From Candidatus Puniceispirillales bacterium (GTDB lineage Bacteria; Pseudomonadota; Alphaproteobacteria; Puniceispirillales; GCA-002684695), in the NCBI GenBank assembly GCA_045565515.1, contig JBJLFF010000019.1, positions 46,960 to 110,959 on the forward strand: 64,000 bases of DNA, read 5' to 3'. How positions within the stretch are numbered: position 1 is the stretch's first letter; the number at the start of each line of letters is the position of its first letter. This document shows positions 24,220 through 54,940 of this stretch, piece after piece. Below the pieces are notes generated by a model that was not told where the DNA came from, did no database searches, and saw only the letters and a program-made list of their open reading frames with translations. The translations under genes and the position numbers were made by a program.

Positions 24220-24239
24220 ATAATTAGAGTATTAATGAT

Positions 24240-27499: not shown

Positions 27500-28902
27500 C
27501 CTTAATTCACCGTCTATTTCTATTCATTATTTTTATATTATTTCCGGTCATTTCTTTTGCGCATGTTTCAGAAAGAGCTTTAATTCTTTTACTTCCAACA
27601 GAATTTTATATTCCAGCTGGTATTTCAGTTTTAATACTCACGATTTTAATAGCTTATTTAACTCCAGTCTCATTCATAACATCTCTTTTCAAATCTCATG
27701 AATTGAAAATTAATTTTAATAAATATATTTCTATAAACCAACTTGAAAATTTGAAAATTTTTACGAGCTGTGTAAGTTTTTTATTTTTGATAATTTTAAT
27801 AATTTTTGGGTTTATAGGCTCCAGAGACCCACTAGCAAATCCTTTATCCCTATTTATTTGGTCAGTTTGGTTTATGGTAATGCCTGTAATTCAGATTCTG
27901 TTAGGTAACGCTTGGGCATTTTTAAATCCTTGGTATGGAATAGGAAAATTATTTTTTAAAGATAAGAAAGTCTATAAATTAAATAGTAATTACTCGCTTA
28001 TATTTTCGTCAGCAGGATTTTTACTTTTTTCAATGTTTATGTTAGTGGACATTGCTCCTGATGACCCTGACAGGCTTGCAAATATTGTAACTCTATACTT
28101 TTTAATAAATCTTTTGTTTGTAAAGATTTTTGGTGTCAATTGGCTTGAAAAGGGTGAATGTTTTACCGCATTTTATGGATTACTGTCTAAATTGTCATGG
28201 ATTTGGATAATGGAAGGCAAAATTCATATTGGTTTTTTTGGTTCTCAACTTAAAAAAATTAAAACGTTTCCTTCTTTGTCTGTTTTGTTTTTATCAATAA
28301 TTTTAGCAACATTATCTTTTGATGGATTAAATGAAACATTTCTTTGGTTCAAGGTAATTGATGTAAACCCTTTAGAGTTTCACGGAAGATCATCAGTTAT
28401 TATTGAGAACTCCTTTGGTTTAATTTTTTTTGCGGTAATGTTATTTTTTATATTTTCAATAACTATATTTTTAGGTCATAAATTTATAAATGAAAGAGTA
28501 CCTTTTAAAGAAATCATAGGCATCAACTCCATTGCACTTCTACCGATCGCTCTTGCTTATCATATAGCTCATTATTTGACATCATTTTTGGTAAACATAC
28601 AATATTCATATAAAGTAGCTTCTGACCCTCTAAACAATGGCAAAGACTTTTTTAATATAGGTGATTTTAATGTTACCACTAGTTTTTTTAATACTATTGA
28701 AACAGTTAAACTAATTTGGTTTATTCAAGCATCAGCAATTGTCATAGGGCATGTCATAGCTGTTTTGTTGGCTCATTCAATTTGTGAGGGATATCTAAAA
28801 AAGAAATCGTCTATATTAATCAGTCAATTCCCAATTAGTATATTTATGATTTGTTATACTTTTCTTGGATTATGGATACTATCAACGCCAACAGTCGGAT
28901 AA
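27496..28902 (+). CDS. polytopic membrane protein of unknown function
   Basis: 468 aa with roughly 10-12 hydrophobic segments. N-terminal signal-like segment ends VISFA/HVSE. Paired His residues sit in late helices (AYHIAHYL, IGHVIAVLLAH). Translationally coupled (ATGA) to the synthetase gene. Confidence 0.7.
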   Translation: MTLIHRLFLFIIFILFPVISFAHVSERALILLLPTEFYIPAGISVLILTILIAYLTPVSFITSLFKSHELKINFNKYISINQLENLKIFTSCVSFLFLIILIIFGFIGSRDPLANPLSLFIWSVWFMVMPVIQILLGNAWAFLNPWYGIGKLFFKDKKVYKLNSNYSLIFSSAGFLLFSMFMLVDIAPDDPDRLANIVTLYFLINLLFVKIFGVNWLEKGECFTAFYGLLSKLSWIWIMEGKIHIGFFGSQLKKIKTFPSLSVLFLSIILATLSFDGLNETFLWFKVIDVNPLEFHGRSSVIIENSFGLIFFAVMLFFIFSITIFLGHKFINERVPFKEIIGINSIALLPIALAYHIAHYLTSFLVNIQYSYKVASDPLNNGKDFFNIGDFNVTTSFFNTIETVKLIWFIQASAIVIGHVIAVLLAHSICEGYLKKKSSILISQFPISIFMICYTFLGLWILSTPTVG

Positions 28903-28997
28903 ATTGGAATATCTATTATAACTAGACATTAGAGCAAATTTGAATCTATAGTTATTAATATAACTGATAATCGTAATTTTAATTATGGGGCAGGTAA

Positions 28998-30284
28998 ATG
29001 AAAAAAATAATAAAAAATAATATTTCTAGAAGAAAATTAATGAAAGGTGTAGCAGCTGCAGGAAGTGTAGCAGCAATGCCTGGATTTGTAAGATACAGTC
29101 AAGCGGCAAGTTCAGAGCCGATTAAGATTGGATTTCAAGTTCACAGAACTGGGATTGGAGCTGCCTACGGAAGGTGGTATGATAGAACAACTCAAGCTGC
29201 TGTAAAAGTTATTAATGATGCAGGCGGCATTAATGGCCGACCAGTTGAAGTTGTTGCTGAAGATGATGGAACTGATCCAAAAAGAGGCGCAGAAGCGCTT
29301 GAAAAATTTGCAAACCAGCATAGCTGTGATGTTGCGTTTGGAACTCTTTTTTCTCATGTTGTAATCGGTTCTGCGCCTAGAGCAGGGGAATTAAAGCTTC
29401 CATATTTTGTTGTATCTGAAGGGCACCATGTAGCTTCAGGCATGCTTAATAGATATACATTACAACCTGGCATTACTGATGTTAAAAGCCAAGTTCAAGC
29501 AATGGCTCCTTTTGTAAAAGAAAATTTAGGTAAGAAAGTTACTATGGTATACCCAGACTTTGCTTTTGGTCATGATCATAGAGATTATTTTTCAGCTGCT
29601 TTTGAGGCTCAAGGTGGGCAAATCATTGCCAAAGTTCCAATTCCACCAACAGAATCTAGTTTTTCAAAATATTTCCCTAAAATTCCAAGAGATACAGAAG
29701 TATTATATCACGTGATGGTTGGGCCAGCTGTTTTAACTTTTGTTAAAGAGCTTGGTGAATTCTATGGATCAAAAAGTCCAAAACTATTTGGATTTATTGA
29801 TAGCGTTGAAGCTGTAGATTTAAGCACTCCAGGACTAGAGTTCCTAGATGGCAGTTATTTTTGGGAAGGAAATCCAAGGTACGCTCAGGCAAACCAAAGT
29901 GATCATGATAAATTTTACAGAGCAGCTATTGGCGTAGATGCTAATGGTGCCTCTGCATCTGACCCTAAAGATGTTTCAACGTATGCTCATATGTTTGGAT
30001 GCTGGGAAACACTCCATATTATTAAAAAAGGTATGGAGGAATCAGGTTACTCTGGAGTTGGTGACAGGGCTAAATTAATTGAAGCTGTTGAAAGTATGAG
30101 TGATATGCCATTATCTCAGGCTCACCCTCAGGGAGCTAAAATATTTAATGGTAAAACTCACCAAACATTTGGTCATCAATATATAACTAAAATGACTAAT
30201 GGAAAGTTAGTTCTAGCGCATACGACATCAATTGAGGATACCTTCTATCCTGATGAAGTTGATTACACTAAACAATCATTTTAG
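28998..30284 (+). CDS. ABC transporter substrate-binding protein (Leu/Ile/Val-binding, type-1 PBP family) with Tat-like signal
   Basis: 428 aa. N-terminus NISRRKLMKGVAAAGSVAAMPG matches the twin-arginine pattern. IKIGFQVHRTGIGAAYG is typical of LivK-like SBPs. Followed by livHMGF. Confidence 0.85.
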   Translation: MKKIIKNNISRRKLMKGVAAAGSVAAMPGFVRYSQAASSEPIKIGFQVHRTGIGAAYGRWYDRTTQAAVKVINDAGGINGRPVEVVAEDDGTDPKRGAEALEKFANQHSCDVAFGTLFSHVVIGSAPRAGELKLPYFVVSEGHHVASGMLNRYTLQPGITDVKSQVQAMAPFVKENLGKKVTMVYPDFAFGHDHRDYFSAAFEAQGGQIIAKVPIPPTESSFSKYFPKIPRDTEVLYHVMVGPAVLTFVKELGEFYGSKSPKLFGFIDSVEAVDLSTPGLEFLDGSYFWEGNPRYAQANQSDHDKFYRAAIGVDANGASASDPKDVSTYAHMFGCWETLHIIKKGMEESGYSGVGDRAKLIEAVESMSDMPLSQAHPQGAKIFNGKTHQTFGHQYITKMTNGKLVLAHTTSIEDTFYPDEVDYTKQSF

Positions 30285-30305
30285 TTTAAATTGACTTAAA
30301 ACAAC

Positions 30306-31187
30306 ATGGATTTAGGGCCTTATCTACTTTTTGCTTCATTAGAAGGCCTTGTCCATGCAGCTGTACTATCTCTCATTGCTCTGGGATTAAGTTTAGTATT
30401 TGGAGTAATGAGAATAGTAAATGTTGCACATGGTGAGTTTTTTATGCTTGGCGCTATACTGGCGTGGTGGGTATCAAGCTTTGCTTTAGGAAATCCAGCA
30501 ATAGGTTTTTTATTAGCATTATTAATAGCTCCTTTGATTGCTGGTATTATTGCAATGTTTTCAGACTGGTTGATTTTGAAACGTTTAAAATACGATCCTG
30601 AAGCTACAATTATAGCAACAATTGGAATTTTATATATTATTCAACAAGCTGCTTTAATGACTTTTGGACCTGATGCAAGACCAGTTGAACAACCATTTAA
30701 TATAAGATTAGATCTGTATTGGTTTGGATTTTCGGCATATAAGTTTTTTGTTATTTTTGCTGCCATAGTTCTGTTATTAGGTGTTTGGCTGGTTATGGCT
30801 AAAACTAAGTTTGGTCTTCTTTTAAGAGCTACGCAATTAGACAGTGAAACAGCTCAAGCTTTTGGAATACCTATTTCAACTGTATATAGCCTTGTTTTTG
30901 GTGCTGGTGCGGCTATAGCTGCAGTTGGTGCTGTTCTCATAGTTCCAATTCAGCAAGCGCATTATTTAATGGGAGGAGAACCATTACTTCTAGCCTTTAT
31001 TGTAGTTATTATCGGTGGCTTAGGAAGCCTAAGAGGAACTGTTGCTGCTGCTGTTCTTATAGGTATGAGTGATGGTATAATATCAGTTTTTTTCTCTCCA
31101 AATTTAGCAAAAATATTAGCAACTTTATTAGTTGTATTTGTTTTATTAATAAAGCCTAACGGATTATTTGGAACAGCTAAAGCATGA
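30306..31187 (+). CDS. livH: branched-chain amino acid-type ABC permease
   Basis: 293-aa hydrophobic protein. LSLVFGVMRIVNVAHGEFFMLGA is typical of the LivH family. Confidence 0.88.
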   Translation: MDLGPYLLFASLEGLVHAAVLSLIALGLSLVFGVMRIVNVAHGEFFMLGAILAWWVSSFALGNPAIGFLLALLIAPLIAGIIAMFSDWLILKRLKYDPEATIIATIGILYIIQQAALMTFGPDARPVEQPFNIRLDLYWFGFSAYKFFVIFAAIVLLLGVWLVMAKTKFGLLLRATQLDSETAQAFGIPISTVYSLVFGAGAAIAAVGAVLIVPIQQAHYLMGGEPLLLAFIVVIIGGLGSLRGTVAAAVLIGMSDGIISVFFSPNLAKILATLLVVFVLLIKPNGLFGTAKA

Positions 31188-32125
31188 GAAAAGATATACT
31201 TCTACATTTAGGAGCTTTGGCAATACTTCTATTGCTTGAATTGCTAGGAATTTTTTCAGATTACCATCAAGGTAATTTTGCAAGAATATTAGTATTAGCA
31301 GCTTATGGTATTGGCTATAACGTTTTATTTGGTTACACTGGTCTTTTAAGTTTAGGGCATGCACTTTTTTTCTCAGCAGGACTGTACGCATCTGGCCTAT
31401 CAATTTACCACTTAGATTATAATGTTGGGCAATCATTAATATTAGCAATTTTCATTTCTGCTTTTGTCTCACTGGTGATTGGATATCTTGCTCTTAGAAC
31501 GGTTGGTGTGTCCTTTATGATTGTAACTCTCATGTTCTCACAAGTTGCCTATTTATGTATTTTGTATTTTGGAGGTGTTACGAGAGGTGACGAAGGTATT
31601 GTCATACAACAGTCAAGCAGAGTTTTTCTTTCCTTGGATTTATCTAATCCTACTATACGATACTATTCAGCTTTAATAGTATTTTCTTTATGCTTAATTA
31701 TTAACCTATGGATTGCAAAAAGTTCATTTGGCAGAGTTTTGATTGCGATTAGGGAAAACAGTGATAGAGCTCTAATGCTTGGTTATAACGTACATTTATA
31801 TAAGTTATTTTCTGTTATCATTTCAGGAACTATCTCTGGTTTAGCAGGAGCCTGTTACGGTATTTTATTTGGTTATGTAGGGGCAAGTTTTGCAGCAGTA
31901 CCATACTCAATATTTCCACTTTTATGGGTTTTAATTGGTGGTGCTGGAACTGTTTTGGGACCACTAGTAGGAGCAATTTTTATGTTTTATCTAATTGATT
32001 ATGCAAGCGATATCACGGATGCTTACATGATAATAGTTGGAATTACACTTTTGATGGTAACTTTATTTGCAAGACGTGGTTTACTAGGTGAATTAAGGTA
32101 TAGGTATTTTAAATGGATACCATAG
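31184..32125 (+). CDS. livM: branched-chain amino acid-type ABC permease
   Basis: 313 aa. YNVLFGYTGLLSLGHALFFSAG is typical of the LivM family. ATGA overlap with livH. Confidence 0.88.
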   Translation: MRKDILLHLGALAILLLLELLGIFSDYHQGNFARILVLAAYGIGYNVLFGYTGLLSLGHALFFSAGLYASGLSIYHLDYNVGQSLILAIFISAFVSLVIGYLALRTVGVSFMIVTLMFSQVAYLCILYFGGVTRGDEGIVIQQSSRVFLSLDLSNPTIRYYSALIVFSLCLIINLWIAKSSFGRVLIAIRENSDRALMLGYNVHLYKLFSVIISGTISGLAGACYGILFGYVGASFAAVPYSIFPLLWVLIGGAGTVLGPLVGAIFMFYLIDYASDITDAYMIIVGITLLMVTLFARRGLLGELRYRYFKWIP

Positions 32126-32829
32126 ACAATATTCTCCTTTACACAGAAAACATAAGTAAAAATTTCCAAGGTATTAAAGCTGTAAATAATGTAAACTTCA
32201 AAATAAATAAAAATGAAATAAGAGCTTTAATTGGACCTAATGGAGCAGGCAAAACAACTTTTGTTTCATTACTTTGCGGAAGGATTAAAGCTTCTAAAGG
32301 GAAAGTGGTTTTTGGTGGAAAGGATATTTCTGATTTTCCTGTCTATAAAAGAATTTCAAATGGAATAGGCTATACTTTTCAAATTACATCAATTTTTTTT
32401 AATTTAACTGTTTACGAAAATGTTGCCTTAGCTATTAAAAAAGATAATTCAAATGAGAAAATAAATACAGTCTCTGAAGTTCTAACTAAAGTTGGGCTTT
32501 TGGATAGGATCAATCAAAGAAGTGGAGACTTAAGTTATGGTCACCAAAGACTTCTTGAATTAGCGATGGGGATGGCTCAAAAGCCAAAGTTACTAATTTT
32601 AGACGAGCCAACACAAGGATTATCAGATTCAGAAATTGAAAATTTTAAAAAATTAATAAAAGATATTTCTTCATCGACAACTATACTATTAATCGAACAT
32701 AATATGGATGTTGTGATGTCTATAGCAGATAATATTTCAGTTCTTCATTTTGGTGAAATAATTGCTGAAGGTGATAAAAAGACTATTCAAAATGACCCTA
32801 TTGTTCAAAAAGCTTATCTGGGGGATTGA
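32113..32829 (+). CDS. livG: ABC transporter ATP-binding protein
   Basis: 238 aa. Walker A GPNGAGKTT, signature LSYGHQRLLE and Walker B LLILDEP. Confidence 0.9.
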   Translation: MDTIDNILLYTENISKNFQGIKAVNNVNFKINKNEIRALIGPNGAGKTTFVSLLCGRIKASKGKVVFGGKDISDFPVYKRISNGIGYTFQITSIFFNLTVYENVALAIKKDNSNEKINTVSEVLTKVGLLDRINQRSGDLSYGHQRLLELAMGMAQKPKLLILDEPTQGLSDSEIENFKKLIKDISSSTTILLIEHNMDVVMSIADNISVLHFGEIIAEGDKKTIQNDPIVQKAYLGD

Positions 32830-33524
32830 TGCTAACTGTTCAAAACCTGACATCATATTATTCTAATATAAAAATACTCAAAGATCTCACATTTAGTTTA
32901 CGAAAAGGTAAGGTAACATGTCTTCTTGGGAGGAATGGCGCTGGCAAAACAACAACACTCAAATCAATAATGGGTTTAGTTGATAAAACTGAAGGATTAA
33001 TATCCTTTAATGATGAAACAATATCAAAAATTTCACCCCATCATATACCTAAAAAAGGGATCGGATACGTTCCTCAAGGTAGAAGGCTTTTCTCAGAATT
33101 AACTGTTGAAGAAAATTTGGAAATAGGTCTTTTAACAAGAAGAAAAAGTGAGGTTACAAAAAATAATGTTTTAACTATGTTTCCTAAGTTAAAGGAAAGG
33201 CTAGATCAAATTTCTGGAACATTATCAGGTGGTGAACAGCAAATGTTGGCTTTGGCTAGGGCACTTTGTATTGAGCCTACTTTATTACTACTAGACGAAC
33301 CTACTGAGGGCCTTCAACCCTCTATGATTTCTCTGATTAGAAACAGTATTTTAGAATTAAAAAAACAAGGTGTTTCTATCCTTCTAGTCGAACAAAGAGT
33401 TGACGCTATTTTATCTATTGCTGATGAAATTTTGGTTATTGAAAATGGGTCTATAATTTTTTCAGCTGATGCAAAAGAAGTACAAAATGACAATAAAAAA
33501 TTATATAGTTTAATAGGTATTTAA
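32829..33524 (+). CDS. livF: ABC transporter ATP-binding protein
   Basis: Walker A GRNGAGKTT, signature LSGGEQQMLA and Walker B LLLLDEP. The ATG at 32829 overlaps the livG TGA. The track start at 32826 is TTG. Confidence 0.9.
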   Translation: MLTVQNLTSYYSNIKILKDLTFSLRKGKVTCLLGRNGAGKTTTLKSIMGLVDKTEGLISFNDETISKISPHHIPKKGIGYVPQGRRLFSELTVEENLEIGLLTRRKSEVTKNNVLTMFPKLKERLDQISGTLSGGEQQMLALARALCIEPTLLLLDEPTEGLQPSMISLIRNSILELKKQGVSILLVEQRVDAILSIADEILVIENGSIIFSADAKEVQNDNKKLYSLIGI

Positions 33525-33526
33525 AA

Positions 33527-34198
33527 TTATAATTCAGAAGTAGATAATAATTTAACCCCTTTACCTTTCATATCGTTTAAAGAATTTTCAAGTGAATTGT
33601 TTAAATCAATTGCTCTACATGCGTTCTTTATTACAGTAACATCGTAACCTAGCTTTGCTCCATCAATAGCAGAAAAATAAACACAGAAATCCAACGCCAA
33701 GCCACAAAGGTAAATTTTATTAATTCCCCTTGATTTTAAGTACCCATCTAAGCCAGTTGGTGTTTTTTGGTCGTTTTCAAAGAATGCTGAATAACTATCA
33801 ATTTCAGGCCTAAAACCTTTTCTGATTATAAGGTCTGCATTATCAGTAATTAATTTTGTATGAAATTTAGAACCTTCAGTCCCTTGTATACAATGATCTG
33901 GCCATAGAACTTGCTTGCCGTAGAACATTTCAACCATTGAAAGTGGGTCTTTACCATCGTGATTAGATGCAAATGATTTATGTGTATTAGGATGCCAGTC
34001 CTGAGTTATAATTTTTATTTTGAACTGCTCTTGAATTTTATTTGCAATTTCAACTACCTCGTCACCTTGATTTACTGCTAAGGCCCCACCAGGACAAAAA
34101 TCATTTTGAATGTCAATTAATACTAATGCTGTATCTTCACCAAAATTACTCATCATTAATTTACCTAAAGAATTTATATTTAATTTATAATTCAACAT
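33527..34198 (-). CDS. pncA: nicotinamidase/pyrazinamidase (isochorismatase family)
   Basis: ALVLIDIQNDF start block, DWHPNTHKSF metal site and catalytic Cys block LCGLALDFCV. The start may instead be the ATG at 34156 (MMSNFGED), which has AGGT upstream. Confidence 0.85.
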   Translation of the reverse strand: MLNYKLNINSLGKLMMSNFGEDTALVLIDIQNDFCPGGALAVNQGDEVVEIANKIQEQFKIKIITQDWHPNTHKSFASNHDGKDPLSMVEMFYGKQVLWPDHCIQGTEGSKFHTKLITDNADLIIRKGFRPEIDSYSAFFENDQKTPTGLDGYLKSRGINKIYLCGLALDFCVYFSAIDGAKLGYDVTVIKNACRAIDLNNSLENSLNDMKGKGVKLLSTSEL

Positions 34199-34282
34199 AT
34201 TTTTTTTAAAATATAGTTTTAATTTTATTTTAGTATTAAAATTATCTTGAAAGATTGGATTTAATATTTAACAGGCATACTT

Positions 34283-35108
34283 ATGGTTGAAGAAAAAATT
34301 AAATCAATGAAGTTATATAACTTTATTGACCGTGTATATAATGAGCTTAAAGAATTAGGTAAAGAAATTGAAGGAGATTTATCAATTGATGAATTGTCTT
34401 CATTTGATCAATTACATTACCATGGCACCGAATCTATTGATTTTACTATAGAAAAGCTAGGTATAAATAGTAACTCAAGAGTTTTAGAAATTGGCTCTGG
34501 TATTGGTGGGCCCTCAAGATATTTAGCCCAAGCAACTGGTGCAAAAGTAACAGCTCTAGAACTTCAAGAAGATCATCATCTAGTTGGAATAGATTTAACT
34601 AAAAGATGTGGGTTGGAAAATAATGTTGAGCATTTATGTGGTGATTTTTTAGACATGTCTTTGCCAGCTGAAAATTATGATGCAATTGTGAGTTGGCTCG
34701 CTCTATATCATATACCTGATAGAGATAAATTATTAGAATCATGTTTAAAAATTCTTAAGCCTAATGGTTATTTTTTTTGCTGAAGATTTTGCTTGTCATC
34801 AACCTTTTAGTGATGGCGAAAAGTCTGAGCTTTCAAAAGATTTTTTTGCTAATTATATTGTTAGTTACTCTGATTATAATTCTGATCTTATCAAAGCAGG
34901 ATTTTCAGAAATTGTTTCAGATGATATGACAATAAGCTGGAGTGATTTTACTAAATCAAGGCATAAAGCCTATAAAGATAATATTGCTAGGCACACAAGA
35001 GTTCATAATGAAACTGTAGTTGAAAATATGCTATATTTTTACAACTTTGCCATGAGGTATTTAGATGGTGGTAAACTTGGTGGAATTAGAATATATGCTA
35101 AAAAATAG
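34283..35108 (+). pseudogene. class I SAM-dependent methyltransferase interrupted by a 1-nt frameshift in a T8 tract
   Basis: The two track ORFs 34283-34783 and 34764-35108 are consecutive parts of one protein. Motif I is VLEIGSGIGGPSRYLA. Removing one T from 34771-34778 joins ...LKILKPNGYFF to AEDFACHQPF... Confidence 0.8.
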
Positions 35109-35129: not shown

Positions 35130-36614
35130 TTAGCGCATCTGAAATGGGTTTGACATAGGCTCATCAGATGTATTAATCCAAACTGTTTTGATGCGTGTAT
35201 AATCATGAATTGCCTGCATTCCGCTTTCTCTACCATAACCAGAGTCCTTATAACCCCCAAAAGGTGCAATTGGAGAGACAACTCTGTATGTATTAACCCA
35301 AACAATTCCAGCTCTAAGCGCTTTAGTGACCCTTAATGAACGAGCACCATTTTTTGTAAAAACTCCTGCAGCTAAACCATATTTTGTATCATTAGCTAGT
35401 TTAATAACTTCTTCTTCACTCTTAAATCTTATTACACTCAGGACTGGACCAAATAGTTCCGTATCTACTATTTTTAATTTTTGATCGTGGCAATCAACAA
35501 TAGTTGGTTCATAAAACCAGCCTCCATTCGGATTTGAAGGTCTTTTTCCTCCATGTAAAATTTTAGCACCCTGAGCCTTAGCATTAGAAATTTCATTTTC
35601 AATCAAATTCATTTGACCTAAAGTAGCTAATGGGCCCATTTGCGTTTCTTCTTGAAGAGGGTCACCTAATTTGATTTTTGAAGCCAAATTGAGCATTTTA
35701 TCTAGAAATTCATCAGCAATACTCTCATGTAAGTATAGCCTAGAACCTGCTACACAGCTTTGTCCACTTGCTCCAAATATTCCAGCAATGGATCCATTCA
35801 CAGCACTTTCAATGTCGGCATCATCAAAGACAATAAAAGGTGACTTTCCTCCAAGTTCTAGAGAAACTTCTGCAAAATTTTCAGCTGAGTTTCTTATTAC
35901 ATGTCTTGCTGTAGATGGTCCCCCCGTAAAACTAATCCTGTGTACTAATGGATGAGTTGTAAGAGTTTTTCCACATGGATCTCCATGACCAGAGATAATG
36001 TTTACAACTCCCGGAGGGAAACCTGCTTCCTCTATAACTTTCCCAAATTCCAGCATTGCTGCTGATGCATGTTCTGATGCTTTTAAAACAACAGTATTCC
36101 CAGCAGCTAGTGCAGGACCTATTTTCACAGCAACTAAAAATAATTGTGAATTCCACGGTACAATTGCAGCAATCACCCCTAAAGGTTCTCTTACATTGAA
36201 TGCGTACATGTCTGGTTTGTCTATTGGAAGTGTGGCTCCTTCTATCTTATCAGCTAAACCTGCATAATAATGAAAGTATTCTGCAATATATTTTGCCTGC
36301 CATCTTGTTTCTTTTAATAACTTTCCGGTATCAATAGATTCTATTTTACCTAATTCTTCAGATTTATTAGCTAGAAGGTCACCTAATTTTCTTAAATATT
36401 TACCTCTTTGGGTTGGAGTAATTTTAGACCACTCACCTTCACTGAATGCATTATACGCAGATTCTACAGCTTTGTTTACATCTGAAGCTGATGCTTCTGG
36501 TATAAGCGCCCATGGTTTTCCTATGCTTGGATTTATACTTTCAAAAGTTTCACTTTTTTCACTTCCAATCCATTCACCATTTACAAACATTTTGTAAGTT
36601 TCAAGATTACCCAT
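35130..36614 (-). CDS. NAD(P)-dependent aldehyde dehydrogenase
   Basis: 494 aa. ELGGKSP block and catalytic Cys block GQSCVAGSRLY. Confidence 0.92.
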   Translation of the reverse strand: MGNLETYKMFVNGEWIGSEKSETFESINPSIGKPWALIPEASASDVNKAVESAYNAFSEGEWSKITPTQRGKYLRKLGDLLANKSEELGKIESIDTGKLLKETRWQAKYIAEYFHYYAGLADKIEGATLPIDKPDMYAFNVREPLGVIAAIVPWNSQLFLVAVKIGPALAAGNTVVLKASEHASAAMLEFGKVIEEAGFPPGVVNIISGHGDPCGKTLTTHPLVHRISFTGGPSTARHVIRNSAENFAEVSLELGGKSPFIVFDDADIESAVNGSIAGIFGASGQSCVAGSRLYLHESIADEFLDKMLNLASKIKLGDPLQEETQMGPLATLGQMNLIENEISNAKAQGAKILHGGKRPSNPNGGWFYEPTIVDCHDQKLKIVDTELFGPVLSVIRFKSEEEVIKLANDTKYGLAAGVFTKNGARSLRVTKALRAGIVWVNTYRVVSPIAPFGGYKDSGYGRESGMQAIHDYTRIKTVWINTSDEPMSNPFQMR

Positions 36615-36726
36615 TATAAATCACCTATACTTTAAATTTTTATTCTTACATATTCAGCATGATTTTTATTCCACGTCAAATAACTTAAGTATATAAATGA
36701 AAGAAGTATTTTGGAGAAAATGTTTA

Positions 36727-37113
36727 ATGAGCAAAAAAAAAGTTATAGGAGATCCTGTTGTGATCGGAGGACGAACTTTATCTTTATCACGAGCTATTAG
36801 AGCAGGTGATTTTGTTTTTCTTACAGGGCAGGTTCCATTCAAGAATGGTGAAGTTATGACACAAGGCACTATTGAGGAACAAACAATTGCAGTTTTAGAG
36901 GATATTAAAAAAACTCTTGGATTAGCTAATTGTAATTTTAAAGATGTTGTAAAAGCAATGGTATGGTTATCCAAAAAGGACTACTTCCCAGGTTTTAATA
37001 AAATCTTTAGTACATATTTTCCTAAAGACCCTCCAGCTAGATCAGCAGTTGTTAACGAATTACTAGTTGATGTAAAAGTTGAAATCGAAGTAATTGCATA
37101 TAAGCCAGAATAG
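36727..37113 (+). CDS. RidA/YjgF-family enamine/imine deaminase-like protein
   Basis: GDFVFLTGQVPF and ARSAVVNELLVDVKVEIEVIAY blocks. The ATG at 36727 gives a family-typical 128 aa. The track start at 36697 would add 10 aa. Confidence 0.85.
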   Translation: MSKKKVIGDPVVIGGRTLSLSRAIRAGDFVFLTGQVPFKNGEVMTQGTIEEQTIAVLEDIKKTLGLANCNFKDVVKAMVWLSKKDYFPGFNKIFSTYFPKDPPARSAVVNELLVDVKVEIEVIAYKPE

Positions 37114-37118
37114 AATTT

Positions 37119-37913
37119 ATGAAAACTTTTTATAATAGTGGTTCGTCTATTAATTTAGTCTCTTCAAACGGTCCTTATGTTATTATGGTTCATGGTTTAG
37201 GCCTTAATAAAAAAATGTGGGGATGGCAAACTAATGAACTATCAAAAAACTTTAGCGTTGTAACATATGATTTGATTGGTCATGGGGAGAGTAAAGATCC
37301 TGAGGGAAAATTAAATTTAGAGAAGTTTTCTAAGCAAATTTATGAAATAATGAATTTCTTATCTATCAAAAAAACTGCCTTAATAGGATTTTCTCTGGGT
37401 GGAATGATTGCTAGAAAATTTGCTATTAAATATAGTGAAAAATTGTGGGCTTTGGCAGTTTTAAACTCTGCTCATAAGAGAGATCAAAAAGCCAAAGATG
37501 CCGTTCAATTAAGGGTAAACAAAGTTAAAATAGATGGCCCTCAAGCTACAACAGAGGATGCACTTAATAGATGGTTTACAGAAGAATATAGAAAAAATAA
37601 TCCTGATGTAATGAATAAAATTAGGAATTGGGTAATGGAAAATAAAAAAGATGTTTACCCAAAGGCTTACCAAGTTCTTGTTGACGGTGTTGATGAGCTA
37701 TTAGATCCATCTTTACCAATAAATTGCCCAACACTTATTTTAACTGGTGATGAAGATTTTGGAAACTCCCCTCAAATGTCTTCAGAAATATCAAAACAAA
37801 TCAAAGGATCAGAATTAAAGATCTTGCCAGGTTTAAGACATATGGCATTAATAGAGGATGCTAGTACTGTTAACAACTTACTATTAGAATTCTTACTTAG
37901 AAACGTTAATTAA
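37119..37913 (+). CDS. alpha/beta-fold hydrolase
   Basis: 264 aa. HGLGLN oxyanion region, nucleophile elbow GFSLGG and C-terminal GLRHMALIED. Confidence 0.85.
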   Translation: MKTFYNSGSSINLVSSNGPYVIMVHGLGLNKKMWGWQTNELSKNFSVVTYDLIGHGESKDPEGKLNLEKFSKQIYEIMNFLSIKKTALIGFSLGGMIARKFAIKYSEKLWALAVLNSAHKRDQKAKDAVQLRVNKVKIDGPQATTEDALNRWFTEEYRKNNPDVMNKIRNWVMENKKDVYPKAYQVLVDGVDELLDPSLPINCPTLILTGDEDFGNSPQMSSEISKQIKGSELKILPGLRHMALIEDASTVNNLLLEFLLRNVN

Positions 37914-37940
37914 ATATTTAAATTAGAGTTTAATTATAAA

Positions 37941-38870
37941 ATGCAATTTGATAAATTAGAATATAGGAAAACATTAGGACAGTTTGTAACAGGTGTTACT
38001 ATTGTTACTACTACGTCTGAGGATGGCACTCCAAGAGGATTTACAGCTAATTCCTTTACATCAGTATCATTAGATCCTCCTTTAGTCTCAATATGTATTG
38101 GGGATTTCAATGAAGGAATTGATATATTTAAAAATTCTAAATATTTTGCCATTAATATTTTAAATGAAAATCAAATGGAAATCTCAAATATATTTGCAAC
38201 ACCATCTCAAAATAAATTTGATAATACAAAATGGTTTAAAGGTGATTTAGGGGCGCCAATTATAGAAAATTCTCTCGCATGGTTTGAGTGTTGTAATTTT
38301 GAACAAATTAGATCTGGAGACCACATAATTTTAATCGGAAACGTAAAGTCTTTTAAAAAAGATAGTGGTTATCCATTAGGTTATTATAATGGAAGTTATA
38401 TAAAATTTAATAACGAAACTTCCTTGGTCAGTGCAATTGAGAAAAACACAAAAACAATCGTCGGTATGATTGTTGAAAACGAAACATCTATTTTATTTTT
38501 TGAGGATAAGGAAAATAATGTTTTGTCTTTACCCAAGGTTGGTGGCAATGGTGGACCTTCAAATACTACAACTCTAATCGATAAATATTCTAGTGTTGGA
38601 TTAAATGTAAAACTTGATTTTGTCTACTCTGTTTATGAGGATAATAAACAGGATGCTGTATGTATATATTATAGATGTAAAGCTAATGGAAAACCTCCAG
38701 ATAAACATAAATATATAAAATTTAATGAAATCAGTTGGGATAAAATTAAAGATGAAGCATTAGTTATAATGCTCAAAAGATATATAGAAGAGTCTAACCA
38801 TGGTAATTTTGCAATTTATATGGGTGATGAAACTAAAGGACAAACTCAAATTCTTAACAAAGGAGACTAA
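37941..38870 (+). CDS. flavin reductase domain protein with an uncharacterised ~150-aa C-terminal domain
   Basis: 309 aa. The N-terminal ~160 aa match the HpaC/flavin reductase-like pattern (FVTGVTIVTTTSEDGTPRGFTANSFTSVSLDPPLVSICI). I could not recognise a family for residues ~160-309. Confidence 0.8.
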   Translation: MQFDKLEYRKTLGQFVTGVTIVTTTSEDGTPRGFTANSFTSVSLDPPLVSICIGDFNEGIDIFKNSKYFAINILNENQMEISNIFATPSQNKFDNTKWFKGDLGAPIIENSLAWFECCNFEQIRSGDHIILIGNVKSFKKDSGYPLGYYNGSYIKFNNETSLVSAIEKNTKTIVGMIVENETSILFFEDKENNVLSLPKVGGNGGPSNTTTLIDKYSSVGLNVKLDFVYSVYEDNKQDAVCIYYRCKANGKPPDKHKYIKFNEISWDKIKDEALVIMLKRYIEESNHGNFAIYMGDETKGQTQILNKGD

Positions 38871-38872
38871 TC

Positions 38873-39475
38873 ATGAAACTTCAAATTAGAAAAATAGTTA
38901 CTTTTGAAGAAGAAATATTTATTGAAGGAGAAAAGGAAGCTACTCAACCGCTTAAATTATTTGGAGTTGCAGCTGTCGTAAAAAATCCTTGGTCTGGAAG
39001 GGGATTTGTTGATGACTTAAAACCAGAAATAAAGTCTTTTGGACCAATTTTAGGTAAAGAATTAACTAATCGTATTATTGATTTAGCTGGTGGGGGTGAT
39101 AAGATCGAAGCTTATGGTAAGGCATGTATGTCCGGACTTAACTGTGAGATTGAACTATCTTCAGCTTTAATCCATACTCTTCATTTTGGAAATTTTTATA
39201 GGGATGCAGTTAAAGCAAAGAGCTATCTTGGTTTCACAAATACAAGAGGACCTGCAAATACACAAATTCAGGTGCCACTTATGGATAAAAATGACTCAGG
39301 TCGAAGGTCACATTATTTAACTGTTCAATTTTCTATATCTGATGCACCAGCAAGTGATGAGTTAATAGCAGTTTTTGGTGGCGCAAATGGTGGCCGCCCT
39401 CATCATAGGATAGGAGATCGATACTCTGATTTGTCAGAATTAGGTCATGATGTTGATAATCCTGCAGGAGTATAA
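38873..39475 (+). CDS. AA_synth/DUF1185-like ('amino acid synthesis' family) protein
   Basis: 200 aa. Pattern IRKIVTFEEE...AAVVKNPWSGRG...YGKACMSG...DAPASDELIAVFGGANGGRPHHRIG matches my memory of this family. An HMM search is needed to confirm. Confidence 0.7.
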   Translation: MKLQIRKIVTFEEEIFIEGEKEATQPLKLFGVAAVVKNPWSGRGFVDDLKPEIKSFGPILGKELTNRIIDLAGGGDKIEAYGKACMSGLNCEIELSSALIHTLHFGNFYRDAVKAKSYLGFTNTRGPANTQIQVPLMDKNDSGRRSHYLTVQFSISDAPASDELIAVFGGANGGRPHHRIGDRYSDLSELGHDVDNPAGV

Positions 39476-39500
39476 ATATTAACTGTTAGAAGTTTTTAGG

Positions 39501-40637
39501 ATGAATAAAGATTTAGAAGGAATACAAGTAATTACTCTAGAACAAGCGGTAGCTGCTCCTTACGCTTCAGGTAAATTAGCACAGGCTGGTGCAAGAGTTA
39601 TCAAGATTGAAAGAGCGGAAGGTGACTTTGCACGAAGATATGACTCTGATGTTAATGGTTTAAGTGCATATTTTGTATGGTTAAACCATGGTAAAGAGTC
39701 TGTTTGCTTAAATATTAAAGATGCTGAAGATCTTTTAATTCTTAAAAATATTATCTCTAAATCAGATATCTTTATTCAAAATCTAATGCCTGGAGCAACT
39801 AATAGAATAGGTATAAGCAGTAAAAGTTTAAGAGAGAAATACCCTTCATTAATTACATGCGATATAAGTGGCTATGGACAAAGTGGTCCATATAGTAAAA
39901 TGAAAGCTTATGATCTTTTAATACAAGCTGAAAGTGGTTTAGCTAATATAAATGGTTCTTCTCAAGAACCAGGGCGTGTAGGAGTTTCTGTATGTGATAT
40001 AGCCGCAGGAATGACTTCTTTTCAAGCTATCTTGCAAGCCTTAATTGGAAGAAATAAAACTGGGTTAGGAAGGGGAATAGAAGTTTCCTTATTCCATTCA
40101 CTTTCTGATTGGATGAATGTCCCTTACTTGCAAACTGTTTATGGGAAACGGAAAGTCAAGAGAGCGGGATTGCATCACGCTACAATTGCACCATATGGAG
40201 TTTATAAATGTAGGCAAGATGAACTAATTCTAATTTCAATTCAAAATGAGCGTGAGTGGTCAAGTCTTTGCAGTTTAGTACTTAAAAAAACTGATTTGAT
40301 TGAAAAAGATAATTTTTCAAATAATAGTAATAGAGTTATTAATAGAAATAGGCTTGATCAAATTATTAATGACGTATTTGGAAGTATGTCGAGAAAGGAT
40401 ATAATAAAAAGACTTCAGGATGCTGATATAGCTTATGGTCAATTAAGCACCGTTGAAGATCTTGCTGACCATCCCCAAAGCAATTTTATTAGTGTTCAAA
40501 CTTCAGAGGGGGAAATTAGTCTCTTGTCACCAGGAGCAGTAATAAATGGTGAAGAAGTTACTTTTGGAAAAGTGCCTTTTTTAGGAGAGCATACTAATAA
40601 AATAAAAAATGAATATAAAAACTTAAAGAATGATTAA
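39501..40637 (+). CDS. family III (CaiB/BaiF) CoA-transferase
   Basis: 378 aa. N-terminal signature LEGIQVITLEQAVAAPYASGKLAQAGARVIKIERAEGDFARRY. Confidence 0.88.
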   Translation: MNKDLEGIQVITLEQAVAAPYASGKLAQAGARVIKIERAEGDFARRYDSDVNGLSAYFVWLNHGKESVCLNIKDAEDLLILKNIISKSDIFIQNLMPGATNRIGISSKSLREKYPSLITCDISGYGQSGPYSKMKAYDLLIQAESGLANINGSSQEPGRVGVSVCDIAAGMTSFQAILQALIGRNKTGLGRGIEVSLFHSLSDWMNVPYLQTVYGKRKVKRAGLHHATIAPYGVYKCRQDELILISIQNEREWSSLCSLVLKKTDLIEKDNFSNNSNRVINRNRLDQIINDVFGSMSRKDIIKRLQDADIAYGQLSTVEDLADHPQSNFISVQTSEGEISLLSPGAVINGEEVTFGKVPFLGEHTNKIKNEYKNLKND

Positions 40638-41802
40638 CCCTAATATCAAAAATATTTCTGAACCACCAATACCTTTAGCAATTTCATGGTCAAGTGAATA
40701 TGACGGTGAACATGGTGAATTGATAGATATGTCTCAAGCAGTTCCTTCATACCCACCTCACCAAACACTTATAGAAAGTTTTATGCACTATAGTGCTGAT
40801 AAAAAGCTTATGTCATATGGCGAAATAGAAGGAGAAGAAATACTAAGGCAAAATTACTCAAATCATATTAATAAACGGTATCAGACAAATACATCCTACA
40901 ATCAAATTTTGATTACTTCAGGATGTAATCAAGCCTTTATAGCATCAATAATATGTTTAGCTGAAGCCGGAGATGAAATTATGATTTCTAATCCAGGCTA
41001 CTTTAGCCACGAACTTTCCTTAAAAATGCTAAATATTAAACCTAAATTCTTTGAGCTTAATAAAAATAACAATTTTGAGATAGACTTAAATGAAATTGAA
41101 AAGAAAATAACTCCAAGAGTTAAGGCTTTAGTTATAGTAAGTCCTGGAAATCCAACCGGATCTCCTCAAAGTAAAGAAAATTTAAATAAACTATTAAACC
41201 TGTGCACTGAAAAAAATATATTTTTAATCATTGATGAAACGTATAGAGATTTTATTTACCCAAATAATGGAAAGCCACATAACTTATTTGATAATGAACA
41301 GTGGAGTTCAAATTTAATTCAACTTTATAGTTTTTCAAAATCATTTTGTATACCTGGACATCGACTTGGTGCAATAACGGCCGATATCAAAATGATCAGT
41401 GAAATATCAAAAATTATGGATAACATTCAAATTTGCGCACCAAGACCTGCTCAACAATCAGTAGCAGATTTTTTGCCTAATTTAGAAAACTTTATAGATA
41501 ATAAGTGTAATAAGATTGGAGAGAAAGCAAATTTATTTTCTAACTCTCTTCCAAAGTCTACTGGTTGGGAAATATCTTCAATCGGTACTTTCTTTGCATA
41601 TGTAAGGCATCCTTTTAAAGATATAAAGTGTGATAAATTATCAAAAATATTAGCATCTAAATGTGGTTTAATTACTATACCTGGAATATATTTTGGCAAG
41701 AAACAAGAAAGATACCTAAGATTATCAATTGCTGGTCTTTCAAATGAAGAAATTATTGAGGTTAAAAATAGGTTAGATTTACTGAATGAGCATCTAAAAT
41801 AA
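40630..41802 (+). CDS. class I/II PLP-dependent aminotransferase
   Basis: 390 aa. PLP-lysine block YSFSKSFCIPGHRLG and SPGNPTG block. Overlaps the CoA-transferase gene by 8 nt. Confidence 0.88.
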   Translation: MINPNIKNISEPPIPLAISWSSEYDGEHGELIDMSQAVPSYPPHQTLIESFMHYSADKKLMSYGEIEGEEILRQNYSNHINKRYQTNTSYNQILITSGCNQAFIASIICLAEAGDEIMISNPGYFSHELSLKMLNIKPKFFELNKNNNFEIDLNEIEKKITPRVKALVIVSPGNPTGSPQSKENLNKLLNLCTEKNIFLIIDETYRDFIYPNNGKPHNLFDNEQWSSNLIQLYSFSKSFCIPGHRLGAITADIKMISEISKIMDNIQICAPRPAQQSVADFLPNLENFIDNKCNKIGEKANLFSNSLPKSTGWEISSIGTFFAYVRHPFKDIKCDKLSKILASKCGLITIPGIYFGKKQERYLRLSIAGLSNEEIIEVKNRLDLLNEHLK

Positions 41803-52216: not shown

Positions 52217-52272
52217 ATTAAGTATTTATAATTGATATTTATTTTTTGCATATTAATGAATTAAGTATAATT

Positions 52273-53184
52273 ATGAAATGGGATAGATTAAGATTATTTA
52301 ACGTAGTTGCACAAGCGAAAAGCTTAACTGATTCTGCAGCTCTTTTAAATATTAGTCAATCAGCTTTAAGTAGACAAATGCAATCACTTGAGCATGAAGT
52401 TGGCAATAGACTATTCGTAAGAAGATCACGTGGAATTGAACTTACTCCTGCTGGAATTCAAGTAGCTGAAGCTGCTAAAAAACTTTCTCAAAGCATCGAA
52501 GATGTAAACCAAAAATTAATATCTGATCAAACGGTACCAAACGGTAAATTAAGAGTTTATGCTACAAATGCTTTTGGATCTCTATGGTTGGCGCCACGCA
52601 TGGGTGCTTTTTTAGATAAGTATCCAGAAATTTCTCTTGCACTTAGCTTGAGAGATGCAGAGCCTAAGGTTTCACCCTCTCAACCACATGCCGAAATCCG
52701 GATGACACCAATAAAAACACAAGATTACATTCAAATCAAATTAGCAACATTTCAATATAAAATTTTTGCTTCTACATCATACTTAAAAGAAAAAGGTGTT
52801 CCTTCAACTGAAAGGGAATTGGATAATCATAAAATCATTTCATATGGTGAGGATGCTCAACCACCTTTAGATAAGAAAAGGCTAAATTGGTTATTGTGGC
52901 AAGGCAAAGAGAATGTTTCAAGAGTTCCATGTCTTGAAATAAGTAGTATATATGGATTGGCAAAATGCGTTGAAGCTGGTTTAGGAATAGCAAGCTTACC
53001 TGGATGGATGAATGATGAAACTAATAACTTATTTGAAGTTTTAAAAGATTTAAATGGCCCAACTTTAGACATTACTTTTTGTTATCACGAACAAATGAGA
53101 GATGACCCTAGGATTATTGCTTTGAAAGATTACTTACAAAGTTTAATAAGGGACGACCTGAGTAAATTCTCAAATACTTTATGA
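52273..53184 (+). CDS. LysR-family transcriptional regulator
   Basis: Starts MKWDRLRLFNVVAQAKSLTDSAALLNISQSALSRQMQSLE (winged HTH). The track start at 52246 is TTG inside the putative operator, so I prefer the ATG at 52273. Confidence 0.9.
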   Translation: MKWDRLRLFNVVAQAKSLTDSAALLNISQSALSRQMQSLEHEVGNRLFVRRSRGIELTPAGIQVAEAAKKLSQSIEDVNQKLISDQTVPNGKLRVYATNAFGSLWLAPRMGAFLDKYPEISLALSLRDAEPKVSPSQPHAEIRMTPIKTQDYIQIKLATFQYKIFASTSYLKEKGVPSTERELDNHKIISYGEDAQPPLDKKRLNWLLWQGKENVSRVPCLEISSIYGLAKCVEAGLGIASLPGWMNDETNNLFEVLKDLNGPTLDITFCYHEQMRDDPRIIALKDYLQSLIRDDLSKFSNTL

Positions 53185-54938: not shown

Positions 54939-54940
54939 TT

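Follow-up and report, generated by a model that had tools for sequence, protein, structure and literature searches.

Phytoplankton release trigonelline, an osmolyte of plants and algae, and homarine as major nitrogen-containing osmolytes; the genes for their degradation serve as markers of carbon and nitrogen flux in the ocean. A six-protein trigonelline pathway, TgnA-F, was reportedly described from Acinetobacter baylyi ADP1 by Perchat et al. in PNAS in 2018. Here we describe a stretch of 64,000 nucleotides (the window) from contig JBJLFF010000019.1 of a Candidatus Puniceispirillales bacterium of the SAR116 lineage. Seven genes in the window encode an aldehyde dehydrogenase (ALDH), a RidA-family deaminase, an α/β-hydrolase, a flavin reductase, an AA_synth protein, a CoA-transferase and an aminotransferase. 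These seven genes probably form the core of a paralogue of the trigonelline (Tgn) system, called type A below, which would work with genes 11 kb upstream in a Tgn-like pathway of ring or C-N opening.

In the trigonelline pathway, TgnA and TgnB constitute the ring-opening flavin system (PMC8269262, PMC13236597). TgnF is homologous to BCM-like proteins (the former DUF1185 family), and it reportedly stimulates TgnE, a succinate-semialdehyde dehydrogenase (PMC7913881). The homarine operon homABCDER opens the ring of a trigonelline isomer with the N-methyl group kept, involves intermediates of the formulas C7H9NO5 and C6H9NO4, and has been reported from SAR116, SAR11 and Rhodobacterales, with HomAB likened to TgnAB (PMC13236597). 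By our own comparison, these formulas are as expected for Tgn-like chemistry. The Rut system of E. coli (RutA-G) follows the same logic, with a luciferase-like (LLM) oxygenase, a flavin reductase, a RidA protein and an α/β-hydrolase acting on an N-heterocycle.

Homology of the seven-gene set to the Tgn proteins

The seven genes and the region from which they diverge are listed below.

35130-36614, minus strand: NAD(P)-dependent aldehyde dehydrogenase, TgnC-like (Pfam Aldedh, 561 bits)
36615-36726, no strand: divergent intergenic region between the ALDH and RidA genes (read from the sequence)
36727-37113, plus strand: RidA-family enamine/imine deaminase (Pfam Ribonuc_L-PSP, 89 bits)
37119-37913, plus strand: α/β-fold serine hydrolase, distant TgnD-like homologue (Pfam Abhydrolase_1, 84 bits)
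37941-38870, plus strand: NAD(P)H:flavin reductase with a predicted C-terminal degenerate Nudix-fold domain, TgnA-like architecture (Flavin_Reduct, 132 bits)
38873-39475, plus strand: AA_synth protein (PF06684, former DUF1185), highly conserved TgnF-like subfamily (Pfam, 215 bits)
39501-40637, plus strand: family III CoA-transferase, dicarboxylate type (Pfam CoA_transf_3, 310 bits)
40630-41802, plus strand: class I/II pyridoxal phosphate-dependent aminotransferase, PRK07550 family (Pfam Aminotran_1_2, 178 bits)

On sequence comparison, the ALDH, the α/β-hydrolase, the two-domain flavin reductase and the AA_synth protein are homologues of TgnC, TgnD, TgnA and TgnF, respectively. The original prediction, made from the sequence alone, had found no described pathway of this composition; this does not hold, since four of the seven genes and an upstream LLM gene are homologous to Tgn enzymes. 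Nor is AA_synth functionally undefined, as was assumed, given the reported action of its homologue TgnF on TgnE (PMC7913881).

To place the set among its relatives, 86 loci encoding AA_synth relatives (66–93% identity) were fetched and their open reading frames (ORFs) were clustered; 80 genome loci each came from a different assembly. Individual loci are referred to by number (L001 onwards). The loci fall mainly into type A, represented by the window and about 58 other loci, and type B, represented by 16 loci. For synteny counts, type A was represented by those 50 loci of other genomes that include 8 kb or more of upstream sequence.

The cluster had been taken as self-contained. An oxygenase partner, an acyl-CoA dehydrogenase and an acyl-CoA synthetase, however, are encoded at 23179-27499, and the LLM gene lies 11 kb upstream of the seven-gene set:

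23179-24219, plus strand: LLM flavin-dependent monooxygenase, type A TgnB paralogue (Pfam Bac_luciferase, 178 bits)
24240-25400, plus strand: acyl-CoA dehydrogenase (ACAD; NCBIfam, below cut-offs)
25397-27499, plus strand: ADP-forming acyl-CoA synthetase, fused alpha/beta type (NCBIfam, below cut-offs)

Judging from homology, the LLM protein is the presumed partner of the flavin reductase at 37941. It shares 66–69% identity with the LLM proteins encoded next to the ALDH in L037, L048, L089 and L091, the values for L037 and L048 being 66–67%. Orthologues with 75% identity carry the JGI name [quoted passage not shown]. This name is given to type A and type B proteins alike and was dropped as a discriminator. 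A Rieske oxygenase, as seen in L001, was also considered for the approximately 345-aa neighbour of the ALDH and was ruled out, as the sequences are LLM monooxygenases; a GbcA-like Rieske gene occurs in just 8 of the 50 type A loci.

The ACAD matches acryloyl-CoA reductase (234 bits), glutaryl-CoA dehydrogenase (173 bits) and crotonobetainyl-CoA dehydrogenase (159 bits) in NCBIfam, all below the cut-offs. It shares 76% identity with the ALDH-adjoining ACAD of the SAR116 metagenome-assembled genome (MAG) L017 and 71% with the ACAD that is paired with a synthetase on Aminobacter plasmid pSR3. The synthetase, whose start overlaps the ACAD stop by 4 nt, matches acetate/3-hydroxypropionate-CoA ligase models at about 260 bits, also below the cut-offs, and shares 55% identity with the synthetase adjoining the ALDH in L017. 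Both genes stand directly beside the ALDH in L017 and in Hypericibacter (L002). Four independent metagenome contigs (L097-L100), 90–100% identical to the window, have the same order of LLM, ACAD, synthetase, membrane protein and ABC transporter genes, and this run is contiguous throughout L094-L100.

The coordinates, strands and gaps of the seven ORFs agree with the original prediction, and strong Pfam scores confirm all of its family calls. The six plus-strand genes at 36727-41802 are separated by 5, 27, 2, 25 and -8 nt, the last being an overlap of the CoA-transferase and aminotransferase reading frames. The intergenic region between the ALDH and RidA genes measures 112 nt if RidA starts at 36727, which gives a product of 128 aa; RidA homologues have 129–133 aa, and an alternative ATG lies upstream at 36697. 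The DNA has a G+C content of approximately 32%. Promoter and terminator scans of this AT-rich DNA from 33.4 to 42.1 kb gave counts equal to those in shuffled sequence and were uninformative. In the intergenic region itself, promoter-like matches were no commoner than in shuffled sequence, and no site was assignable.

Catalytic residues were assigned from motif positions in the ALDH (E253/C287), the hydrolase (nucleophile S92 in GFSLGG), the aminotransferase (K237 in SFSKSF) and the CoA-transferase (D166). The RidA protein contains the PARSAV motif, and its conserved Arg was placed at position 105 in the same way. Apart from the aminotransferase, no core protein was placed in a named NCBIfam equivalog. 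The aminotransferase scores 449 bits against NF005732 (PRK07550; cut-off 366), a family without assigned function. RidA reaches 87 bits against TIGR00004 (cut-off 106), the ALDH reaches no equivalog cut-off, and the best match of the hydrolase is 3-oxoadipate enol-lactonase with 157 bits (cut-off 256).

The CoA-transferase scores 197 bits against succinate-glutarate CoA-transferase and 196 bits against oxalate CoA-transferase, both below the cut-offs. Its closest solved chains are a formyl-CoA transferase and a succinate-hydroxymethylglutarate CoA-transferase. This resemblance to dicarboxylate CoA-transferases agrees with the earlier suggestion of an amino or dicarboxylic metabolite. Against the equivalog of the L-carnitine CoA-transferase CaiB (NF002914) the protein scores 100 bits (cut-off 413). 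It shares 43% amino acid identity with the transferases encoded with ACAD and PrpD in L027 and, likewise, 43% with that of Aminobacter pSR3, which is encoded beside ACAD, PrpD, MaoC and a CitE-like lyase.

The AA_synth orthologues share 66–93% identity across Alpha- and Gammaproteobacteria. By this protein, the window is closest to a single-cell genome of SAR116 and to a marine MAG (91–93% identity). The solved AA_synth structures 2qtp (SPO0826) and 3byq were ruled out as orthologues and are distant paralogues only.

Conservation and architecture of the type A, type B and type C clusters

In type A loci, the ALDH gene, usually with the LLM gene behind it, is divergent from the genes for RidA, the hydrolase, in part of the loci the CoA-transferase, the reductase and AA_synth. 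Among the 50 loci, the ALDH was found in 49, the α/β-hydrolase in 47 and RidA in 39, while the LLM monooxygenase and the flavin reductase were found in 35 each. Because the ALDH, the hydrolase and RidA accompany AA_synth this often, the clustering of the seven genes is not due to chance, and the expectation of a conserved catabolic cluster is upheld by the synteny. Some CoA-activating enzyme is encoded in 40 loci, including a family III CoA-transferase (34/50) and an ADP-forming acyl-CoA synthetase (13/50), and an ACAD in 21. Other recurrent genes encode a carnitine-dehydrogenase-like enzyme (30/50), a CaiD-like hydratase (29/50), a GbdR/GlxA-like regulator (28/50) and a β-keto-acid cleavage enzyme (BKACE; 26/50). 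The fullest example is plasmid pSR3 of Aminobacter sp. SR38, with a second CoA-transferase, ACAD, a PrpD-like protein, a MaoC hydratase, a CitE-like lyase, electron-transfer flavoprotein and an acetoacetate-CoA ligase. The seven genes of the window are half of a larger gene set that is widely conserved in marine and freshwater Alphaproteobacteria.

The aminotransferase is not part of this conserved set. It was detected in only 5 of the 86 loci, all closely related and SAR116-like (L004-L008), and these are also the only loci in which a window-type CoA-transferase directly 3' of AA_synth occurs together with it; L027 has such a transferase in this position without the aminotransferase. The original prediction had placed a triad of AA_synth, CaiB-type transferase and aminotransferase at the core of a self-contained pathway for an unusual amino or dicarboxylic acid, built around the aminotransferase. 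The tight packing of the genes, including the 8-nt overlap, and the resemblance of the transferase to dicarboxylate transferases speak for such a pathway. The triad does not recur, however, and the synteny contradicts this model: RidA, the hydrolase, the ALDH and AA_synth are kept without an aminotransferase that is confined to one narrow lineage, and the oxygenase that the reductase requires sits outside the proposed cluster. We therefore regard the model as very improbable. The associated idea of transamination with RidA clean-up is likewise undermined, since RidA is kept in 39 of the 50 loci without the aminotransferase.

Type B loci are co-linear, with the genes in the order AA_synth, α/β-hydrolase, two-domain flavin reductase, LLM and ALDH (L084, L047, L067, L087 and L096). 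They are found in Psychrobacter (L084), on an Acinetobacter venetianus plasmid, on Rhizobium etli p42c and on Sinorhizobium meliloti pSymA, often together with a GntR or LysR regulator, a betaine-type or other permease, and a GabD-like succinate-semialdehyde dehydrogenase. The protein inventory of type B presumably matches that of the six Acinetobacter Tgn proteins. Its two-component flavin system (the two-domain reductase and the approximately 345-aa LLM protein), ALDH, α/β-hydrolase and AA_synth helper all have homologues in the window. The ALDH, hydrolase and AA_synth genes corresponding to TgnC, TgnD and TgnF lie within the cluster in both, with the ALDH and the hydrolase in separate clades. 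The co-linear order, however, is not shared: in the window, the ALDH gene is divergent from RidA-hydrolase-reductase-AA_synth and the LLM gene is 11 kb away. A GabD-like ALDH corresponding to TgnE is present in type B loci L084 and L087, whereas the window gives only 32–33% matches at two generic ALDH genes. RidA, absent from all 16 type B operons, the CoA-transferase, the synthetase and the ACAD are additions of the window relative to Tgn, and most relatives further add the carnitine-like hydratase, dehydrogenase and BKACE. Regulators also differ, being of GbdR/GlxA type in type A and of GntR or LysR type in type B.

The window proteins share 40–43% (LLM), 53–55% (ALDH), 25–31% (hydrolase; 27–28% in a second comparison), 35–37% (reductase) and 66–69% (AA_synth) identity with those of type B. 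Mean identities between types A and B are 38% for LLM, 53% for ALDH, 26% for the hydrolase and 67% for AA_synth, compared to 69%, 76%, 53% and 76%, respectively, within type A; LLM proteins within type B are 55–100% identical. Within type A, the window proteins share 69–92% (ALDH), 62–87% (RidA) and 42–70% (hydrolase) identity with their relatives. Identities to the Parasedimentitalea pW43B and Aminobacter pSR3 proteins are 69–72% for ALDH, 68–69% for LLM, 45–46% for the hydrolase and 65–68% for RidA. Neighbour-joining trees recovered both type A and type B as monophyletic groups for the LLM protein (39/39 and 18/18, respectively), for the hydrolase (59/59 and 18/18) and for the ALDH (58/58 and 17/17). 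The window has the type A layout, and its LLM, ALDH and hydrolase fall into the type A clades; its LLM is a paralogue of TgnB in a separate monophyletic clade, so that orthology to the TgnA/TgnB pair is not observed. Judged by these trees, type A is an orthologous group distinct from type B. AA_synth is almost as conserved between the two types as within them, which suggests that its helper role does not differ between them.

A third form, type C, comprises the same five protein families and a ProXWV betaine-type transporter. It occurs on Agrobacterium fabrum C58 plasmid At, R. etli p42f, and Mesorhizobium and Shinella plasmids, where the records name its products generically. Its LLM is the closest paralogue outside type A (47–49% identity), while its AA_synth is just 48–53% identical. 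The gene order is reductase-ALDH-LLM-hydrolase-CMD-NIPSNAP-AA_synth, with no CoA genes or RidA in the operon. On A. fabrum C58 plasmid At (L090, 211499-232530), a glyoxylate/hydroxypyruvate reductase gene follows AA_synth, and ProXWV and a LysR regulator are encoded alongside. Types B and C coexist in R. etli on different plasmids and in Shinella 11 kb apart; such coexisting paralogues therefore presumably differ in substrate.

The Flavin_Reduct domain covers residues 13-153 of the 309-aa reductase, so the extra C-terminal domain noted in the original prediction is real. It is not a peculiarity of this cluster but an ordinary TgnA-like architecture, approximately 305 aa long and common to type A and type B loci, presumably serving a monooxygenase that the prediction had missed. 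In a profile search, the C-terminal domain matched PDB 3rh7 (E=7e-31) and 3cng, a Nudix hydrolase (E=1e-9), and no Nudix box was found in the domain. This combination points to a degenerate Nudix fold, whose role is more likely to lie in ligand binding or regulation than in catalysis. PDB 3rh7, a "hypothetical oxidoreductase" for which the entry gives no function, has the same flavin-reductase and Nudix-like two-domain architecture, and its gene belongs to the type B cluster of S. meliloti pSymA.

A fusion of the reductase with a CoA-transferase domain occurs in 21 of the 50 type A loci. The family III CoA-transferase is in frame with the two-domain reductase, giving proteins of approximately 700 aa (L037, 7892-9988; L048, 7879-9987; L089, 9862-11985; and 18 other loci). 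On Parasedimentitalea marina pW43B, the fusion is a single 707-aa RefSeq coding sequence annotated "CoA transferase". The L037 fusion retains the Asp motif GVGDIFAG, which aligns by eye with VCDIAAG of the window transferase. We know of no earlier description of a CoA-transferase-flavin-reductase fusion. The fusion would tie the flavin system to CoA chemistry, and we count it in favour of the Tgn-like, CoA-dependent pathway proposed here.

The hydratase, dehydrogenase and regulator families that recur in type A match carnitine and betaine enzymes, all below curated cut-offs. They raise the alternative of a carnitine/γ-butyrobetaine-type pathway, in which CoA activation of a quaternary or secondary amino acid would be followed by desaturation, hydration, oxidation and cleavage by BKACE. 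The LLM and reductase would cleave a C-N bond oxidatively or introduce a hydroxyl group, and the semialdehyde set free would be oxidised by the ALDH. The crotonobetainyl-CoA-hydratase-like (296 bits) and L-carnitine-dehydrogenase-like (303 bits) enzymes, BKACE and the GbdR-like regulator (238 bits) each occur in 26–30 of the 50 loci. In L037, L048 and L094, these genes share an operon with LLM and ALDH. RefSeq names the hydratase "carnitinyl-CoA dehydratase", four loci have OpuAC-type binding proteins directly downstream, and the acetoacetate-CoA ligase at the end of the pSR3 cluster would fit a BKACE product. To our knowledge, however, carnitine and γ-butyrobetaine routes need no LLM, RidA, hydrolase or AA_synth, and the clearest homology of the conserved core is to Tgn. 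The window and L097-L100 also lack the hydratase, the dehydrogenase and BKACE and yet retain the Tgn-like genes. In L094 and L095 (LLM 89% identical), an enoyl-CoA hydratase, a 3-hydroxyacyl-CoA/carnitine-type dehydrogenase and BKACE lie between LLM and ACAD; compared with L094 (256-5160), this 2.7-kb stretch is absent from the window (23179-25400) and from L097-L100. Variants with and without the segment are both present in marine metagenomes. We consider a carnitine-type pathway improbable.

Transport genes near type A clusters vary and include PotD-like, OpuAC, peptide-type and Urt-like systems; OpuAC- or PotD-type binding proteins and N-methylglutamate synthase genes were each found in 4–7 type A loci. 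In L064 (10621-15377), L068 and L057, a putative homarine operon lies directly downstream of the type A AA_synth gene. It encodes an ALDH, an M19 dipeptidase, a 565-aa protein without a Pfam match and an approximately 214-aa DUF3726-like protein, the last two fitting the published lengths of homB and homA. Taken in this order, the four genes agree in size with homD, homC, homB and homA. N-methylglutamate synthase genes (GATase, GXGXG and Glu_synthase) follow a few kb beyond this operon. A homarine-like operon also lies about 2.5 kb from the type B cluster of a Woeseiaceae MAG (L065, 15638-20583). Such a combination of Tgn-like, homarine-like and N-methylglutamate genes would constitute a catabolic island for pyridinium betaines, and these neighbours point to N-methylated substrates that release methylamine.

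The window cluster is not itself the homarine operon, although both have an ALDH and a hydrolase or peptidase. homA and homB measure approximately 700 nt (about 233 aa) and 1,700 nt (about 566 aa), respectively (PMC13236597), compared to 930 and 1,041 nt for the reductase and LLM genes of the window. Apart from generic ALDH similarity, the window contains no homologue of the putative HomA, HomB and HomC among the hom-like proteins of L064. The hom operon was thus ruled out as the identity of the cluster, being a different enzyme system.

The adjoining transport block and other genes of the window

Between the upstream and downstream halves of the type A set lies a block of candidate members:

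27496-28902, plus strand: polytopic membrane protein, candidate member (no Pfam or NCBIfam match)
28998-33524, plus strand: five-gene Urt/Fmd-like ABC transporter (binding protein, two permeases, two ATPases), candidate member (NCBIfam)
33527-34198, minus strand: nicotinamidase/pyrazinamidase PncA, candidate member (NCBIfam NF008623, 222 bits, cut-off 174)
34283-35108, plus strand: S-adenosylmethionine-dependent small-molecule methyltransferase, frameshifted, candidate member (ORFs 34283-34783 and 34764-35108)

The cluster had been described as lacking both a transporter and a regulator. No local regulator was found in this genome, in agreement with that description, but the ABC transporter at 28998-33524 adjoins the cluster as a candidate member. 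Its components score 180 (UrtB), 119 (UrtC), 231 (UrtD) and 253 bits (UrtE) against the NCBIfam models, all below the cut-offs, and its binding protein is divergent, with 66 bits to the urea substrate-binding protein model. The start of the membrane protein gene overlaps the synthetase stop by 4 nt in the window. This gene is always found 5' of the ABC transporter, even in L102-L104, which have no Tgn-like genes nearby.

The methyltransferase is split by a frameshift in a T8 run GGTTATTTTTTTTGC at approximately 34771-34778, where tblastn also changes frame; an intact protein of 275 aa is encoded in L004 and L008. The frameshift may stem from an error in sequencing or assembly, or the gene may be a true pseudogene. 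The best NCBIfam match of the protein, sarcosine/dimethylglycine N-methyltransferase, is weak (57–59 bits).

In the marine loci L102-L104, the membrane protein-ABC-PncA-methyltransferase block stands alone among genes for cytochrome-c maturation (ccm), glnE and tRNA modification (mnmA). The block is therefore a separable module and was downgraded from a firm part of the pathway, in which its role is putative. Together, the genes at 27496-35108 may serve to take up and process nicotinamide or some other small amide.

The block also bears on the possibility of a Rut-like pyrimidine or amide pathway, in which RidA, the hydrolase, the reductase and the LLM protein would correspond to RutC, RutD, RutF and RutA, the isochorismatase-family protein to RutB, and the Urt-like system to the importer. 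The protein families are the same, weak matches to the RutC, RutD and RutF models exist, and an isochorismatase-family gene and an Urt-like transporter of amide/urea type do adjoin the cluster. The scores, however, are far below the cut-offs for RutC (46 bits, cut-off 169), RutD (79, 239), RutF (77, 255) and RutB (28, 378), and no RutA model is among the best 25 NCBIfam matches of the LLM protein. The window lacks RutB, RutE and RutG, the isochorismatase-family protein passes the PncA cut-off instead, and the block stands alone in other genomes. A Rut-like pathway is largely refuted and seems hardly conceivable.

Three other regions of the window carry putative catabolic or methyl-transfer genes. 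A protocatechuate/β-ketoadipate-like run at 11449-17614 (plus strand) encodes an MBL-fold protein, a pcaD-like α/β-hydrolase, a pcaC-like CMD protein, pcaH/pcaG-like dioxygenase subunits, two CoA-transferase subunits and a thiolase. At 18925-20478, a protein of the MttB superfamily (Pfam MTTB, 354 bits), which includes trimethylamine methyltransferases, is encoded beside sdhBA. A second catabolic-looking cluster at 53185-63618 (minus strand) encodes a carbon-nitrogen hydrolase, an M20 peptidase, a peptide-type ABC transporter, an ALDH, an SDR protein and an S58 (DmpA-like) peptidase, and is accompanied by a LysR regulator at 52246-53184.

Proposed pathway, candidate substrates and implications

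The most likely function of the type A set is the flavin-dependent opening of an N-methylated heterocycle, with the product being processed in a CoA-dependent way. We infer the order of the reactions and every substrate from the observed homology, synteny, separate clades and domain architecture. The reductase (37941) would feed reduced flavin to the LLM monooxygenase (23179), which would oxidatively open the N-substituted, probably N-methylated, heterocycle of an osmolyte resembling a pyridinium betaine. The ALDH (35130) would oxidise the aldehyde or lactol formed, and the α/β-hydrolase (37119) would take off an N-formyl or N-acyl group to give an enamine. RidA (36727) would then speed the conversion of the enamine or imine to a carbonyl compound and a free amine, and the TgnF-like AA_synth protein (38873) may help the semialdehyde/ALDH step. 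Unlike in Tgn, the carbon skeleton would pass through CoA thioesters by action of the CoA-transferase (39501), the synthetase (25397) and the ACAD (24240), to which most other genomes would add the CaiD-like hydratase, the carnitine-dehydrogenase-like enzyme and BKACE. The aminotransferase (40630) appears to be an addition of the SAR116 lineage, probably acting on an oxo or amino acid end product.

Trigonelline itself is a possible substrate of this pathway, but a different, related compound is more likely. If trigonelline were the substrate, type A would be the marine alphaproteobacterial trigonelline pathway, yielding methylamine, formate and a C4/C5 acid, and the extra genes would alter only the downstream part, for example through a 2-substituted succinate processed as CoA esters instead of a decarboxylation to succinate semialdehyde. 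Several observations are consistent with this. The JGI trigonelline monooxygenase name is carried by the 75%-identical LLM orthologues. The identities between types A and B for ALDH (49–58%) and AA_synth (about 67%) are similar to those of the most distant type B pairs (53% and 66%), suggesting similar intermediates. Type A occurs beside the putative homarine operon and N-methylglutamate genes (L064, L068 and L057), as type B does beside a homarine-like operon in L065, and the CoA-transferase, MaoC hydratase and CitE-like lyase of pSR3 would suit a substituted succinate. The JGI name, however, is non-discriminating, being found on both types, and the LLM protein and the hydrolase, which face the ring and the N-formyl product, are the most diverged (38% and 26%) and fall into separate clades. 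Rhizobia with types B and C in one genome show that paralogues diversify, and trigonelline degradation does not require the roughly six extra enzymes of type A. On balance, trigonelline as the common substrate is possible but rather unlikely.

A Tgn-like pathway for a related N-methylated compound also has points against it. For type A, the literature searched holds no biochemical or genetic result for any member, and searches for the gene combination came back empty. At 38% mean identity to type B, the LLM protein could catalyse another oxygenation, such as betaine C-N cleavage. Neither LLM nor reductase is encoded within 10 kb in 6 of the 50 type A loci; there, the ALDH/RidA/hydrolase/AA_synth core may also work without the oxygenase, or the oxygenase may be encoded elsewhere, as in the window. 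The missing hydratase, dehydrogenase and BKACE and the frameshifted methyltransferase suggest that the pathway may be reduced or decaying in this genome. Finally, equating type B with Tgn relies on the A. venetianus plasmid, on the composition of the loci and on the JGI name, which type A proteins bear as well.

Within the Tgn-like reading, we tentatively suggest that type A may be a third route, neither the Acinetobacter-type trigonelline pathway nor hom, for an abundant N-methylated heterocyclic or betaine metabolite of plankton, with the ring or acid handled as a CoA thioester. Such "hybrid" aerobic CoA-thioester handling would explain the fusion of the reductase with the CoA-transferase. 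More speculatively, in this lineage the ABC transporter, PncA and the N-methyltransferase could convert imported nicotinamide via nicotinate into an N-methylpyridinium compound, which would then be opened by the Tgn-like enzymes. If true, this form of the pathway would allow SAR116 to catabolise vitamin B3 compounds.

The comparison indicates that there are at least three deeply separated paralogous forms of the Tgn-like enzyme set. The one found in SAR116, many Rhodobacteraceae and freshwater Aestuariivirga differs from the characterised one; its unusual features are the apparent recruitment of RidA for ring opening and the fusion of a CoA-transferase with a flavin reductase. It is also carried by cultured hosts, including Parasedimentitalea, Ruegeria denitrificans, HTCC2083 and Aminobacter. 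Because automated annotation labels the type A oxygenase as "trigonelline monooxygenase", environmental surveys may be reading trigonelline use into a pathway whose substrate is different or broader.

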